This document shows, piece after piece, positions 6,280 through 16,093 of a DNA stretch of 40,647 nucleotides. The DNA is from Deltaproteobacteria bacterium (lineage in GTDB: Bacteria; Desulfobacterota; Desulfobacteria; Desulfobacterales; UBA11574), in assembly GCA_019310125.1 (NCBI GenBank), contig JAFDEW010000006.1, positions 1 through 40,647 on the forward strand, read 5' to 3'. Under the pieces are notes generated by a model. It saw only the letters and a list, made by a program, of their open reading frames with translations, ran no database searches and was not told the origin of the DNA. Position numbers and translations under genes: made by a program. The stretch's first letter is position 1. Each line of letters begins with the position of its first letter.

Positions 6280-7662
6280 ATGAAACGTACTAAAATAGTT
6301 AAGCTGTTACAATCGGAAATCCCGGCAACTCATGTTCTTATAAAAGGATGGGTTCGAACCCGTCGAGATTCAAAAGGTTTTTCTTTTATCGAAGTCAACG
6401 ACGGATCCTGCCTCAAGAACATTCAGATCCTTACCAATAGCTCATTAAGTAATTACCCGGACATCTTAAGGCTCTCGACAGGATCTGCAGTAATTATCAG
6501 CGGTAATTTGGTGGAATCCATGGGGTCCGGACAAAAATGGGAGATCCTGGCGGATCGGGTTGAAATTGTCAGTTTTGCCCCTGAATCCTATCCCTTGCAG
6601 AAAAAACGCCATACGGACGAGTTTTTAAGAACCATTGCCCATTTAAGACCCAGGACCAACAAATACGGCGCCGCATTTAGGATAAGATCCGAGCTTTCAT
6701 ATGCCATCCATAAATTTTTCAGGGACAGAGGTTTCAAATATATTCATTCCCCCATCATAACCGGTTCCGATTGTGAAGGCGCCGGCGAATTGTTCCGGGT
6801 AACAACCCTAACTCTGGAAAATCTCCCTAAAAAAGACAGCCGGGTTGACTATGCACAGGATTTTTTTGGATCCCAAGCAAACCTGACGGTCTCCGGGCAG
6901 TTGTCCGCCGAAATGTTTGCCCTGGCGTTGGGAGATGTCTATACCTTCGGCCCAACGTTTAGGGCTGAAAATTCTCATACCAGCCGGCATGTTGCCGAGT
7001 TCTGGATGGTGGAACCGGAGATGGCGTTCTGCAACCTTGAAGAAACCATGGATCTTGCCGAAGAAATGATAAAATATTTAACCCGTTTTATACTCAAAGA
7101 AAACATGGAAGATCTTGAACTTTTTGCAAATTTTGTAGATAAAAATTTGATAAAAACCCTTGACTCCGTGGCGTCGTCCAGTTTTAACCGCCTGTCGTAT
7201 GCCTCAGCTGTAGAAATATTAAAAAAATCCCGGATAAAATTTGAATATGATATCGATTTTGGAAAAGATCTACAAACCGAACATGAACGTTATCTCACGG
7301 AACAACACTTTAAAAATCCTGTGATCGTCTATGATTATCCTAAAAATATAAAACCATTTTACATGCGCGTAAACGACGACGACAAGACCGTTTCTGCCAT
7401 GGATGTTCTGGTACCGAAAATTGGAGAAATTATCGGGGGAAGCCAGCGCGAAGAACGATTAGACATGCTGGAAAAACGAATGGACGAAGCAAGAATGCCT
7501 AAAGACGATTACTGGTGGTACCTGGACTCCCGCCGGTTCGGAAGCGTGGAGCACAGTGGTTTCGGTCTGGGATTCGAACGACTGATTATGTTTATGACCG
7601 GAATTTCCAACATCAGGGATGTCATCCCTTTTCCAAGAACGCCGAACAATATTGAATTTTGA
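6280..7662 (+). CDS. asnS: Asparagine--tRNA ligase
   Basis: It has an N-terminal OB fold (IKGWVRTRRDSKGFSFIEVNDGS) and class II motifs including FRAENSHTSRHVAEFWMVEPE and GFGLGFERL. The 460-aa length fits the family. Confidence 0.9.
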   Translation: MKRTKIVKLLQSEIPATHVLIKGWVRTRRDSKGFSFIEVNDGSCLKNIQILTNSSLSNYPDILRLSTGSAVIISGNLVESMGSGQKWEILADRVEIVSFAPESYPLQKKRHTDEFLRTIAHLRPRTNKYGAAFRIRSELSYAIHKFFRDRGFKYIHSPIITGSDCEGAGELFRVTTLTLENLPKKDSRVDYAQDFFGSQANLTVSGQLSAEMFALALGDVYTFGPTFRAENSHTSRHVAEFWMVEPEMAFCNLEETMDLAEEMIKYLTRFILKENMEDLELFANFVDKNLIKTLDSVASSSFNRLSYASAVEILKKSRIKFEYDIDFGKDLQTEHERYLTEQHFKNPVIVYDYPKNIKPFYMRVNDDDKTVSAMDVLVPKIGEIIGGSQREERLDMLEKRMDEARMPKDDYWWYLDSRRFGSVEHSGFGLGFERLIMFMTGISNIRDVIPFPRTPNNIEF

Positions 7663-8566: not shown

Positions 8567-12125
<3,559 letters not shown>

Positions 12126-12643: not shown

Positions 12644-15600
12644 ATGAGATTTATTGCTGATTTTCATGTTCATTCACATTTTTCAAGGTCAACGGCGAAA
12701 AATCTTGATCTTGAAAACCTATACATAGCAGCCCAGTTAAAAGGTATAACGGTTATCGGAACCGGTGATTTTACCCATCCGGGATGGTTTGCAGAAATTA
12801 AAGAAAAACTTGTTCCGGCTGAACCCGGACTTTTCAAGTTAAAGGAAAAAATCGCAAAACTATGCGATCAACGGGTTCCCCTGTCGTGTCGAGGGAACGT
12901 TAGGTTTATACTGGTTTCTGAAATAAGTAATATCTATAAAAAAAATAATAAAACCCGTAAAAATCATAATCTTGTATTTCTGCCAAACCTTGACCTTGCA
13001 GAAAAATTTAATTCAAAATTAGATAAAATCGGGAATATTAAATCTGACGGCAGGCCCATTCTCGGCCTTGACGCAAGAGACCTTCTTGAAATTCTTATAG
13101 AGACTTCCGACAAGGGGTTTCTAATACCTGCTCATATCTGGACCCCATGGTTTTCACTCCTTGGTTCAAAATCAGGATTTGATTCCATCGAAGAATGTTT
13201 TGAAGATCTTTCATCTTATATATTCGCAGTTGAAACCGGCCTTTCATCCGATCCGGCCATGAACTGGAGAGTATCCTCTTTGGACGGAAGGACGTTGATC
13301 TCGAATTCTGATGCCCACTCCCCCTTAAAACTTGGAAGGGAAGCAAATATTTTTAATACGGAGCTTTCCTATTCATCCATAAAAAAAACCATCAAAAAAG
13401 GAGACCCCGAAAGTTTTGTCGGAACTTACGAGTTTTATCCCGAAGAGGGAAAATATCATATCGATGGACACCGAAAGTGTAATGTTAGTTTTTGGCCGGA
13501 ACAGACCCGAAAACATGACGGAAAATGTCCAGTCTGTGGGAAACCACTGACACTTGGTGTTTTGTACAGAGTAGAGGAACTTTCCGACCGTTTGGAGGGT
13601 GAAAAACCCAAAAATAAACCCCCTTTTTTTAATATTGTTCCACTTACGGAAATATTATCGGATGTTTTAGAAGTGGGTTCCGGGTCAAAGAAAGTGATGA
13701 GAAATTATATGACCTTGCTTGAGAAGCTTGGACCCGAACTTGAAATTCTTAATACCAAAAAAAAAGAAGAAATTAATTCGGCGGGAGTTCCTTTGCTTGG
13801 TGAAGCAATTTCAAAAATGAGGCAAAATAAAATCGTTCTTTTACCCGGATATGACGGAGAATATGGAAAAATAAAAATTTTTAATCTTCAAGAACGGAAA
13901 AGACTACTCGGACAAAAAGAGCTTTTTTTTATTAAGCCACCGGAATCTGATAAAAACAAGAAAAAAAAACACCAAAGATCACATCAGCAAAAACTATCTA
14001 AACAAATTCGCCATACGGCACGCATTGAGACGGTGTCAGAAAAAAAAGATACTAATTCTAATCCGTTGCAGAAAGAAAGCCCTGTCGAATTCGGCCTGTT
14101 TGAGCTGAACAAGGAACAGCGTCGGGCGGTTGAATACGAAACGGGCCCCATGATTATCGTAGCAGGTCCGGGTACCGGTAAAACACGAACCTTGACCCAT
14201 CGGATAGCGCACCTTGTAACAGATAAAAAAGTTTTGCCGAAAAATATTCTGGCAGTAACATTTACGAACAAGGCCGCACAGGAAATGCGGAACAGACTAA
14301 AATATTTAATAAAAAACCCAAAACAACTTCCTTTTACGGGAACATTTCACAGTCTTTGTTTAAACCTGTTGAACGATCATCAAAAAAATGGCTGTGTAAT
14401 CATCGATGAGGATGATCGAAAAAATATAATTTCGGACGCAATCAAACATATGGAGAAAAATGGCCATACAGTTGCCGTTAAACCGAAAAGACTTTTAGAT
14501 TGGATTGCGTCAGCCAAGCAGTTGATAAAACTCCCCGAAGAATGTGCTGATGAAATTGCCGGTTCCCAAAAGCAGATTTTTCTTACTGTATTAAAATGTT
14601 ATCAGAATCTGCTATCCATTCAGGGCCTTTGTGACTATGAAGACCTGATATATAACACCGTCCGTCTTTTTGAAGAAGATAAAGATATTATAAAAAAATA
14701 CCGGGAACGCTATAAATATGTTTTTGTAGATGAATATCAGGATTTAAATCATGGACAGTACTCTTTACTAAAAACTCTTATGCCCCCTGGAACAAAAAAA
14801 AGAAATATTTGCGTTATTGGAGATCCGGACCAGTTAATTTATGGGTTCAGGGGGTCGGATGTTAAATATTTTAATAACTTTATTAAAGACTACCCTGATG
14901 CCGAGGTTTTCAGGCTGACACAAAATTACCGATCAACCCAGACCATTCTTGATGCATCCTATCAGGTCATCAGCGCACGAGAAAAAGACGCTCACAGATC
15001 GCGTATTTATTCTACGATCAACGGTGTAAAAACGATCAGTGTTATTGAAGCGGGTTCGGCAAAAGGCGAAGCTGTTGCGGTCGGCAAGATTATTGAAAAA
15101 TTAATTGGGGGTATGGGGTTTCATTTTATGGATTTCGGTTCCGCTTGTGACCGGCACCAGATACCGAACAAAAGCTTTTCTGATTTTGCCGTGTTATACC
15201 GAACCGATGTTCAGAATAGATTTTTTTCAGATGTTTTTGTTAAGGTGGGCATACCCTTTCAAATCGTTAGCTGGACAAATGCGTTTGACACAAAAAATAT
15301 AAAAGAATTAATCTCATTATTGAAAACCATTGAAGGATTGGGATGTTTTGCTGATTTTGAAAGAAGTATAAATTTATTGAACAAACCGATCAGTAGAAAA
15401 ATCGTGGAAATTTTTAAAAATTGGAGTTACAAAAACCGATTTGCACTGTCAAAAGCAATAGATAGCGCGCGAAAGTTACCCATACCAGAAATGGGCCGGG
15501 CCAGGCACTTAAAATTGAATGGTTTTTTAAGTGATCTTTTGGAAATGAAAAAAAAGATCAGAGAGTTGGATGTTGAAAAAAAGCTTGTTTTTCTCGTGAA

Positions 15601-16093
15601 AAACACCCGGCTTGCGGAAACCATAAACGGTAATCCAAAAACAAAACAGGTGGTAAAACGATTAATTGATATTTCCAAAACATTCGATTTTAACATGTCA
15701 GGTTTTGTTGCCATGATCGCCTTGAACACCGATACGGATAGTTACGAACGCGAGGCTGAAAAAGTTTCGTTGATGACCATGCATACCGCCAAAGGCCTTG
15801 AGTTTCCGATAGTTTTTCTTGTGGGGTGTGAAAATGGGTATCTCCCGTTTCAAGGATTGAACTTGGAGACGACGGATGTGGACGAAGAAAGACGGCTTTT
15901 TTATGTTTCCATGACCCGTGCCCAGGAGCGACTATACTTAACCTTTGCCAAAAAAAGGAAAATTTATGGAAAAACCAAAGATCGGATTATGTCGCCATTT
16001 ATCGGGGAAATCGAAAACCGTCTAAAAATGAAAGAGAAATCTATTCCGGGCAAGAAAAGAAAGAACGGTCCAACACAACTCAAACTTTTTTAA
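12644..16093 (+). CDS. Fusion protein: EndoQ-type PHP-domain endonuclease (TIGR00375-like) plus UvrD/PcrA/Rep-type superfamily 1 helicase
   Basis: The N-terminal half carries DFHVHSHFSRS, GTGDFTHP, SNSDAHSPLKLGRE, GKYH, the zinc finger CPVCGKPLTLGVLYRVEEL, and PGYDGEYGKIKIF, matching my recollection of Pyrococcus EndoQ. A Lys-rich linker follows. The helicase motifs are AGPGTGKTRT, VDEYQDLN, QNYRST, TMHTAKGLEFP and RRLFYVSMTRA. The last residues are QLKLF. The ATG at 12644 is preferred over the GTG at 12521, which lies inside a hairpin. Confidence 0.8.
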   Translation: MRFIADFHVHSHFSRSTAKNLDLENLYIAAQLKGITVIGTGDFTHPGWFAEIKEKLVPAEPGLFKLKEKIAKLCDQRVPLSCRGNVRFILVSEISNIYKKNNKTRKNHNLVFLPNLDLAEKFNSKLDKIGNIKSDGRPILGLDARDLLEILIETSDKGFLIPAHIWTPWFSLLGSKSGFDSIEECFEDLSSYIFAVETGLSSDPAMNWRVSSLDGRTLISNSDAHSPLKLGREANIFNTELSYSSIKKTIKKGDPESFVGTYEFYPEEGKYHIDGHRKCNVSFWPEQTRKHDGKCPVCGKPLTLGVLYRVEELSDRLEGEKPKNKPPFFNIVPLTEILSDVLEVGSGSKKVMRNYMTLLEKLGPELEILNTKKKEEINSAGVPLLGEAISKMRQNKIVLLPGYDGEYGKIKIFNLQERKRLLGQKELFFIKPPESDKNKKKKHQRSHQQKLSKQIRHTARIETVSEKKDTNSNPLQKESPVEFGLFELNKEQRRAVEYETGPMIIVAGPGTGKTRTLTHRIAHLVTDKKVLPKNILAVTFTNKAAQEMRNRLKYLIKNPKQLPFTGTFHSLCLNLLNDHQKNGCVIIDEDDRKNIISDAIKHMEKNGHTVAVKPKRLLDWIASAKQLIKLPEECADEIAGSQKQIFLTVLKCYQNLLSIQGLCDYEDLIYNTVRLFEEDKDIIKKYRERYKYVFVDEYQDLNHGQYSLLKTLMPPGTKKRNICVIGDPDQLIYGFRGSDVKYFNNFIKDYPDAEVFRLTQNYRSTQTILDASYQVISAREKDAHRSRIYSTINGVKTISVIEAGSAKGEAVAVGKIIEKLIGGMGFHFMDFGSACDRHQIPNKSFSDFAVLYRTDVQNRFFSDVFVKVGIPFQIVSWTNAFDTKNIKELISLLKTIEGLGCFADFERSINLLNKPISRKIVEIFKNWSYKNRFALSKAIDSARKLPIPEMGRARHLKLNGFLSDLLEMKKKIRELDVEKKLVFLVKNTRLAETINGNPKTKQVVKRLIDISKTFDFNMSGFVAMIALNTDTDSYEREAEKVSLMTMHTAKGLEFPIVFLVGCENGYLPFQGLNLETTDVDEERRLFYVSMTRAQERLYLTFAKKRKIYGKTKDRIMSPFIGEIENRLKMKEKSIPGKKRKNGPTQLKLF

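Follow-up and report, generated by a model that had tools for sequence, protein, structure and literature searches.

A bacterial EndoQ-type endonuclease fused to a UvrD-type helicase and carrying two predicted sliding clamp-binding motifs

Organisation of the fusion gene and its product

The DNA analysed here, referred to as the window, is a 40,647 bp stretch of contig JAFDEW010000006.1 (assembly: GCA_019310125.1) from a Deltaproteobacteria bacterium of the Desulfobacterales. It contains a complete gene (12,644 bp–16,093 bp, + strand, stop codon included) in which a single open reading frame (ORF) encodes a 1149 amino acid protein that joins an N-terminal EndoQ-type endonuclease to a C-terminal UvrD-type helicase and carries two clamp-binding-like peptides. 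Divergent from it lies dnaN (11,007 bp–12,125 bp, - strand), encoding the beta sliding clamp. The ORF list of the window begins the fusion frame at an upstream GTG (12,521 bp–16,093 bp, + strand). The ATG at 12,644 bp gives a product beginning MRFIADFHVH and, as an M[KR]FIAD N-terminus was present in 120/120 of the closest homologues, this ATG was taken as the real start. The closest protein clusters, from JGI, ENA, NCBI and Logan assemblies, were likewise unbroken in 120/120 cases (1129–1175 amino acids, 100% coverage, 56–92% identity). Because these assemblies are independent, a missed stop codon or frameshift was excluded and the single frame is therefore real, which answers the concern of a preliminary description of this DNA, made from its letters alone, that the gene might be split in two. 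The uninterrupted frame given in that description matched the ORF list, and all of the strings it quoted were found in the product: DFHVHSHFS, SNSDAHSP..LGRE, GKYH, CPVCGK and PGYDGEYGKIKIF in the N-terminal part, ESDKNKKKKHQRSHQQKLSKQIRH in the linker, and AGPGTGKT, DEYQD, QNYRS, TMHTAKGLEFP and RRLFYVSMTRA in the helicase.

The EndoQ module comprises amino acids 1–413 (12,644 bp–13,882 bp, + strand), with a PHP catalytic domain, a Zn-binding domain and, at the C-terminus, a helical domain, and ends on PGYDGEYGKIKIF. Amino acids 5–410 matched positions 2–374 of the 374-position TIGR00375 profile, that is the whole model, with an E-value of 4e-54, and all homologues carried a precomputed match to Pfam family PF27218. 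A phmmer search of the PDB aligned amino acids 5–412 with the Pyrococcus furiosus EndoQ (PfuEndoQ) structure 5zb8 (E 2e-52; about 1e-52 across 5zb8 and 7k30–33), and a Foldseek search with an AlphaFold2 (AF2) model of the protein retrieved 5zb8/7k30 at a target template modelling (TM) score of 0.74–0.77. The metal ligands, the residues of the lesion pocket and wedge and the four-cysteine (C4) zinc site of PfuEndoQ have been listed previously (PMC5961232). Alignment with 5zb8 placed the PfuEndoQ metal ligands H8, H10, E76, H84, H139 and D193 at H8, H10, E93, H108, H164 and D223 of the window protein, and the pocket and wedge residues T142, W144, E167, G169, L170 and N191 at T167, W169, E197, G199, L200 and N221. 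All of these residues, together with H225, which was listed with D223 among the metal ligands, were invariant in each of two alignments, one comprising 16 EndoQ modules and the other 52 full-length homologues. The zinc-finger ligands H276, C279, C295 and C298 (13,469 bp–13,537 bp, + strand) were also invariant in both alignments; the site is H-C-C-C, whereas that of PfuEndoQ is C4 (C249, C252, C268 and C271), so that the first ligand is His rather than Cys. It is plausible that the four residues bind zinc, although the site is not the canonical C4. Thus, judged by alignment, the residues which PfuEndoQ uses for catalytic Zn binding, base flipping and entry of uracil or hypoxanthine are all kept, and the earlier assignment of the N-terminal half to EndoQ was borne out by the match to the whole of TIGR00375 and by the retained ligands, pocket and wedge.

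The module is followed by a variable, Lys/Gln-rich linker, predicted to be disordered, at amino acids 429–486 (13,928 bp–14,101 bp, + strand). No conserved column was found between F428 and N489 in the 52 full-length homologues, and A makes up 42% of the linker DNA, in which the longest run of A is nine. The AF2 model, built on the 52 homologues, had a mean predicted local distance difference test (pLDDT) score of 70 and a predicted TM (pTM) score of 0.49; both modules were folded, and the pLDDT fell below 50 over residues 423–486 and 1131–1149.

Amino acids 487–1133 (14,102 bp–16,042 bp, + strand) form a superfamily 1A (SF1A) helicase core of the UvrD/PcrA/Rep type, with domains 1A, 1B, 2A and 2B. 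Matches to PF00580 (251.6 bits, E 1e-74, cut-off 23) and PF13361 (165 bits, E 4e-48, cut-off 25.6) were far above threshold, and motifs GPGTGKT, DE.QD, GDP.Q, NYRS, H..KGLEF and ER.L..V..TR were invariant in the 52 homologues. Foldseek of the AF2 model retrieved PcrA (3pjr, E 3e-36), UvrD (2is1) and Rep (1uaa) with target TM-scores of 0.72–0.77 and 28–33% identity; no solved structure spanning both modules was matched in this search. Pfam, motifs and Foldseek therefore agree with the description of the C-terminal part as a complete UvrD/PcrA-type SF1 helicase. The best NCBIfam helicase match was TIGR01073 (pcrA), at 486 bits against an equivalog cut-off of 911 and over positions 4–641 of 725, followed by rep (392 bits against 951) and uvrD (377 against 1144). 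Matches to addA (151 bits against 708) and recB (129 against 696) were confined to the helicase region. As the pcrA match ends at position 641 of 725, the C-terminal domain of PcrA/UvrD is missing; a short basic tail stands in place of this Tudor-like domain, which has been described as binding RNA polymerase.

The tail consists of a basic, variable segment at amino acids 1134–1144 (the KEKSIPGKKRKNGPT region; 16,043 bp–16,075 bp, + strand) and of the C-terminal clamp-binding-like pentapeptide QLKLF at amino acids 1145–1149, encoded, as first described, by the last five codons before the stop (16,076 bp–16,090 bp, + strand). The 25 amino acids preceding the pentapeptide are variable and 26% Lys or Arg, whereas Q1145, L1148 and F1149 were as invariant in the 52 homologues as the residues of Walker A. 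A Q[LMI]x[LM][FI] motif lay within the final eight amino acids of 120/120 close homologues, at the exact C-terminus in 114, against a background of 1.5e-4 per position inside the same proteins. Across complete non-redundant fusions the strict motif (Q-[LM]-x-L-F) was present in the last ten amino acids of 63/83, compared with 0.23 expected and a maximum of 3 in 2,000 resamplings; a relaxed pattern was present in 70/83 (0.92 expected). The motif was retained across phyla, where its commonest forms, QLSLF and QLDLF, correspond to the QL[S/D]LF beta-clamp consensus, and the earlier reading of QLKLF as a beta-clamp-like terminus was upheld.

An internal motif of the same kind, QKELF, was found at amino acids 424–428 (13,913 bp–13,927 bp, + strand). 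This motif (ERKRLLGQKELF, Q424–F428) lies exactly ten residues after the end of the EndoQ core (...KIKIF413), just past residue 423, at which the low-confidence segment of the AF2 model begins; both Q-x-x-L-F peptides of the protein are thus in low-pLDDT segments flanked by variable sequence. E417, Q424 and F428 were invariant in the 52 homologues, and Q..[LM]F occurred at an offset of ten in 114/117 full-length close homologues. Archaeal EndoQ binds PCNA through a C-terminal PCNA-interacting peptide (PIP) box with a dissociation constant of 55 nM, which stimulates nicking (PMC4858679). By position, the internal motif is the apparent counterpart of the archaeal PIP tail. The parallel with the archaeal EndoQ–PCNA pair drawn in the preliminary description therefore stood in so far as a clamp-type peptide is present, and had to be corrected in that the positional counterpart is amino acids 424–428, which had been overlooked, and not the C-terminus. 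Binding of DnaN by either peptide is a prediction.

Distribution of fused, split and standalone forms

A search with the EndoQ module of 1.84 billion cluster representatives (50% identity) returned 3,630 proteins, 1,099 of which had E-values of 1e-30 or lower; 120 of the best 150 of the 3,630 representatives were at least 1000 amino acids long. In a scan of one genome per species at least 589 genomes carried a relative of the module, and the best 80 of these loci (cited below by L number) were classified with hidden Markov models built for this analysis. Sixty were complete fusions and eight were fusions cut by a contig end; three had adjacent separate genes (L070, L079 and L080), seven encoded EndoQ alone (including L004, L066 and L083) and two were undecidable. 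The fusion was therefore present in 68/80 species-representative loci from at least eight phyla, the taxa being Desulfobacterota, Chloroflexota, Myxococcota, Binatia, Gemmatimonadota, Rhodothermaceae, Planctomycetota and Alpha- and Gammaproteobacteria. Carriers included Desulfobacterales (with the complete genome of Desulfonema magnum), Caldilineaceae/Anaerolineae, Sorangium and other Myxococcota, and Pirellulaceae. The EndoQ–UvrD architecture is common and is the prevailing form among the closest relatives examined. That the modules occur fused, adjacent or, rarely, as EndoQ alone is a Rosetta-stone pattern, which supports functional coupling between them.

Where EndoQ was a separate gene, its product terminated on the internal motif (L070 ...QQMVLF*, L080 ...KQLTLF* and L083 ...DQLALF*, the asterisk marking the stop), and the helicase genes adjoining separate EndoQ genes kept their own terminus, ...QLKLF or ...QMKLF. 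Since each of the split polypeptides carries its own terminal clamp-type motif, the clamp looks like a common platform for both. We regard these independently tagged split forms as the strongest comparative argument, at the level of sequence, for the clamp being shared. The Bacillales-type EndoQ of Brevibacillus had neither a clamp-like tail nor a helicase.

Several loci departed from these arrangements. An in-frame TAA at 9258–9260 of L001 (GCA_001735875.1, DS021230.1), also found in L002 and L003, splits the EndoQ and helicase ORFs and falls inside the conserved internal motif (...KIFKAQERE*LQGQKALFSNP...). The 419 amino acid EndoQ product of this type recurs without any change of sequence in 85 of the collection's blocks. 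The TAA may be a recent nonsense mutation producing a two-gene version or may be a read-through site. In L006 (7257–8300), from a metagenome-assembled genome (MAG), the EndoQ module was 92% identical to that of the window and the synteny was the same (dnaN, EndoQ, nucleoside transporter, aminotransferase). Relative to 14,100 bp–16,760 bp of the window it has a gap running from just past the helicase start (...LNKEQRRA) to the start of the ORF for a CxxCxxCC protein, such that the helicase and the PilZ gene are gone; the gap either reflects a genuine deletion or arose in co-assembly. Three further Desulfobacterales MAGs (L028, L033 and L043) had EndoQ-only genes of 425–441 amino acids with no Q-x-x-L-F tail, divergent from dnaN–gyrB and with no helicase downstream, and may represent secondary helicase losses in the same syntenic slot. 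On the megaplasmid of Brevibacillus laterosporus (NZ_CP011075.1; L086:3423–5170) a NUDIX hydrolase gene precedes the standalone EndoQ with a 2 bp gap, and spoIIM, fur and xerD lie after it. The context thus differs from that of the fusions and may be informative, combining nucleotide-pool sanitation with lesion nicking.

Genetic context of the window locus

The 372 amino acid product of dnaN, the predicted docking partner, matched PF00712, PF02767 and PF02768, aligned end to end with solved clamps (E 1e-40) and has the C-terminus ...MPMRI. Between dnaN and the fusion gene is an AT-rich intergenic spacer of 518 bp (12,126 bp–12,643 bp) which presumably holds the promoters of both; the GC content over 12,001 bp–13,000 bp is 27%, in agreement with the 0.5 kb AT-rich spacer first reported. 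A dnaN gene was found divergently upstream, at 0.2–3.4 kb, in 23/80 loci, all of the Desulfobacterales type and none from other phyla. As the adjacency is limited to one lineage it points to inherited synteny and is weak functional evidence, so that the back-to-back arrangement emphasised in the preliminary description is true of the window locus and is a lineage-specific trait.

The best sigma-70-like site on the + strand of the spacer was at 12,376 bp–12,404 bp. It is overlapped by a perfect 24 bp palindrome (12,387 bp–12,410 bp, TTATATACTATA/TATAGTATATAA), which could be an operator. A 15 nucleotide inverted repeat (12,521 bp–12,535 bp and 12,566 bp–12,580 bp, 93% complementary, 30 nucleotide loop) lies in AT-rich sequence of the presumed 5′ leader upstream of the ATG at 12,644 bp. 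The GC skew switches sign at about 12 kb. Despite this switch and the AT richness, an oriC in the spacer was unsupported, there being no DnaA box in it and no dnaA in the 40 kb window; one-mismatch matches to the DnaA box numbered ten in the whole window, compared with approximately 12 expected, and none of them was in the spacer.

The genes of the window were all housekeeping genes and included those for RNase G, a radical-SAM protein, HtrA, an Asn/Asp-tRNA synthetase, gyrB and dnaN, and, beyond the fusion gene, PilZ, a nucleoside transporter, IspG, ProS, RelA/SpoT, TrxB and HemA. A Pfam census of 108 flanking ORFs at 60 fused loci revealed only lineage-restricted neighbours, namely SLT/DUF4124 (8–11 loci), an RdgC-like ORF (10) and dnaN (3). 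The SLT/DUF4124 gene lies downstream of the fusion gene in those loci and is absent from the window. The RdgC-like ORF (approximately 204 amino acids, 612 bp) is a weak match to PF04381 located between dnaN and the fusion gene on the opposite strand in about ten Desulfobacterales loci (L012, L013, L015, L017, L019, L024–L027, L057 and others; at 7068–7682 in L001), and is also absent from the window. Beside gyrB, a 263 amino acid ORF (7696 bp–8487 bp, - strand) had a partial, weak match to thymidylate synthase (E 1.7e-10, positions 101–212 of 266), and the same gene adjoins gyrB in L001. It may encode a divergent ThyA-like enzyme or one that modifies dCMP or dUMP, which would be of interest beside a uracil-repair gene. 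Further along the window, the ORFs for a low-molecular-weight phosphotyrosine phosphatase (18,881 bp–19,450 bp, - strand) and a circularly permuted YpsA (SLOG) protein (19,353 bp–19,829 bp, - strand) overlap by 98 nucleotides as listed; as the phosphatase domain begins at residue 43, a downstream start for the phosphatase is likely.

Proposed function and relation to known systems

With its modules intact and its motifs conserved, the fusion protein is computationally supported as what the preliminary description had suggested, a clamp-tethered nick-and-unwind enzyme for deaminated bases. Our reading, to which we assign a probability of about 0.6, is that of a clamp-riding, self-contained and glycosylase-independent excision-repair enzyme for deoxyuridine (dU), deoxyinosine (dI) and apurinic/apyrimidinic (AP) sites. 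We infer the nicking, unwinding and clamp binding of the protein from its sequence. One or both peptides would bind the DnaN dimer at its hydrophobic pockets, by which the enzyme would be kept on clamps remaining on newly replicated or repaired DNA. The EndoQ module would then nick immediately 5′ of a dU, dI or AP site, leaving a 3′-OH and a 5′-phosphate on the lesion nucleotide. At the nick, the tethered helicase would load onto the intact strand and translocate 3′–5′ along it, peeling the lesion-bearing strand away as a 5′ flap and dislodging the product-bound nuclease, a displacement step proposed by analogy with 5′-nick-directed UvrD excision in mismatch repair. The flap would be trimmed by an exonuclease or a 5′ flap nuclease, after which a polymerase bound to the clamp, and a ligase, would complete the repair. 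EndoQ is known to remain on its nicked product, has been proposed to recruit downstream enzymes and is followed by a helicase step in one pathway model (PMC5961232, PMC4357722). We are more confident of the nuclease activity, the helicase activity and the clamp binding taken singly than of the mechanism as a whole; we are least sure of which way the helicase unwinds and of how the two clamp motifs share the work.

Several observations weigh against this reading. The TIGR00375 score of the EndoQ module (184.3 bits) is under the curated NCBIfam cut-off of 326.6 and the helicase is likewise under its equivalog cut-offs, which makes both modules members of divergent subfamilies whose specificity could differ. 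The pTM of 0.49 gives no confident inter-domain geometry, so that the hand-off from nuclease to helicase is only presumed. About 16–24% of the complete non-redundant fusions had no recognisable terminal motif, and in the cross-phylum set the internal motif persisted in only about 60%. The census of flanking ORFs yielded no partner, such as a polymerase, ligase, exonuclease or flap nuclease, that was conserved from phylum to phylum, and literature searches aimed at the fusion returned no biochemical data on any fused member. A wider proposal, on which we would place somewhat less than even odds, is that EndoQ occurs in bacteria mainly in this form, fused to a helicase and tagged twice for the clamp, and would define a widespread, replication-coupled and glycosylase-free nick-and-unwind pathway for uracil, hypoxanthine and AP sites. 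The two peptides might fill the two pockets of a single DnaN dimer or hand over from one to the other, and the fusion would point, in Rosetta-stone fashion, to the enzyme that acts after the EndoQ nick.

The fused gene could also reflect co-localisation only, with two independent clamp clients joined or adjacent for co-expression and shared recruitment, nicks being handled by Pol I nick translation, the helicase serving other clamp tasks and no hand-off taking place. The absence of a fixed interface in the AF2 model, the variable linker of approximately 60 amino acids between the modules, the separate clamp motifs of the split forms and the genomes with EndoQ alone (L004, L066 and L083) are all consistent with this explanation, which we nevertheless consider unlikely, as fusion or adjacency lasting across at least eight phyla (68/80 loci; 120/150 best representatives) is hard to explain without functional coupling and, in the top 120 full-length matches, the helicase clade never occurred apart from EndoQ. 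Quite unlikely, in our view, is that the protein is the housekeeping or accessory PcrA/UvrD/Rep-type helicase of the lineage, tethered to the clamp instead of to RNA polymerase or DnaB and clearing fork roadblocks, with EndoQ as an add-on for uracil and AP sites. PcrA was indeed the best NCBIfam match (486 bits), a clamp motif has taken the place of the C-terminal domain that PcrA and UvrD possess, and some of the Desulfobacterales have the gene beside dnaN and gyrB, near a GC-skew switch. The scores, however, are about half or less of the PcrA, UvrD and Rep equivalog cut-offs, which a paralogue would be expected to show, and only one lineage has the dnaN synteny. The invariance of the lesion pocket, moreover, suggests that nicking at lesions is a core activity and not an accessory one.

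A nuclease-helicase acting against uracil-containing or otherwise modified invading DNA, which the preliminary description had already named as the weaker alternative, appears very improbable. There were strong PADLOC matches of the GajB type (UvrD helicase), and a suggestion that the EndoQ of Bacillus might act against uracil-DNA phages is passed on in a review (PMC8307549). The GajB matches, however, reflect generic UvrD similarity, and no GajA/OLD-type partner was found near the window gene or among the 108 flanking ORFs of the 60 loci. No other defence gene was nearby, the neighbours in the window being dnaN, PilZ, the CxxCxxCC protein and the nucleoside transporter; the EndoQ module had no phage homologue and one distant plasmid match. 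The gene lies in a conserved housekeeping context and occurs in at least eight phyla, and a tether to the replication clamp fits genome maintenance better. An artefact, in which a missed stop or frameshift in the linker joined two genes, has a negligible probability: the A-rich DNA with its nine-A run, the in-frame TAA of L001–L003 and the truncated EndoQ-only ORFs at some loci would allow for it, but the 120/120 closest clusters and the 60 complete species-level loci were uninterrupted in independent assemblies, and the linker varies in length without loss of the frame.

The beta-clamp consensus motifs at the C-termini of bacterial EndoQ homologues were described by Shiraishi et al. (2016, Sci Rep 6:25532; PMC4858679). 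Supplementary Fig. S1 of that paper gives 44 proteins, of which ten are short, with the motif at approximately 401–464 and, like the separate EndoQ genes found here, ending on it, and 34 are long, with the motif ending at 945–1244. The long set includes Desulfobacterium autotrophicum (WP_015906045), Geobacter metallireducens (WP_004512662), Sorangium cellulosum (WP_012236160), Desulfobacter curvatus, Caldilinea aerophila, Rhodothermus marinus and Desulfovibrio vulgaris. The paper gives motif and position only; it mentions neither the helicase nor the internal motif nor the fused, split and standalone series, and reports no experiments on these proteins. The NCBI name for members of the family is "UvrD-helicase domain-containing protein". 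Literature searches aimed at the fusion or at EndoQ papers and reviews found no description of an EndoQ–helicase fusion, a mention in PMC7958190 (the PNAS 2021 structure) or in the 2017 B. pumilus paper being possible. The window protein is thus a further member of a family known from sequence, and its terminal clamp motif has already been published as a prediction. As far as could be determined, the explicit EndoQ–UvrD reading with its fused, split and standalone series, the internal motif and the scale of the family are undescribed.

Taken together, the fusions and the clamp peptides nominate a UvrD-like helicase as downstream partner, and DnaN as platform, for bacterial excision repair initiated by EndoQ. 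The step after the EndoQ nick becomes directly testable, and the 2016 list offers tractable carriers in Geobacter, Desulfovibrio vulgaris, Zymomonas mobilis and Rhodothermus. The family would also illustrate cleanly how an enzyme tethered in archaea by its PIP box has been refitted with clamp motifs of the bacterial type.

Compared with the EndoQ enzymes of P. furiosus, Thermococcus kodakarensis, Methanosarcina acetivorans and Bacillus pumilus (5ZB8, 7K30–7K33), the window protein has the same three-domain fold, metal ligands, lesion pocket and wedge Trp and, like the archaeal enzymes with their PIP box, has a predicted clamp-interaction peptide in a disordered tail past the core. It differs in carrying a helicase of approximately 650 amino acids, an H-C-C-C zinc site and Q-x-x-L-F instead of a PIP box. 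The Bacillales-type EndoQ of Brevibacillus, in contrast, is standalone, with a C4 finger and no clamp-like tail. The long bacterial homologues of Shiraishi et al. belong to the same family, sharing the length class (945–1244 amino acids), the QL[S/D]LF-type terminus and the lineages. With UvrD, PcrA and Rep (3PJR, 2IS1 and 1UAA) the protein shares the motifs and the four-subdomain architecture, but it is an equivalog of none of them, has no C-terminal domain of approximately 80 amino acids and adds a terminal clamp motif and an N-terminal nuclease predicted to be lesion-specific.

NucS/EndoMS offers a parallel as a nuclease specific for lesions or mismatches that Archaea and Bacteria share and that needs the replication clamp for its activity; reference titles in PMC8438529 name its activation by the replication clamp in archaea and, in bacteria, a clamp-mediated mismatch endonuclease. 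Its fold, however, is unrelated, it makes double-strand cuts at mismatches and it has no fused helicase. A UvrD-family motor coupled to a nuclease is also found in AddA/RecB/AdnB and in the MutL–UvrD pair. The nuclease of AddA/RecB is a C-terminal PD-(D/E)XK domain which acts on DNA ends, whereas that of the window protein is N-terminal and would be a lesion-specific nickase of the PHP type. In E. coli mismatch repair, nick-directed excision by UvrD is the mechanistic analogue of the unwinding step proposed here; there the two activities are coupled through MutL, whereas in the window protein the coupling of nuclease and helicase is covalent.

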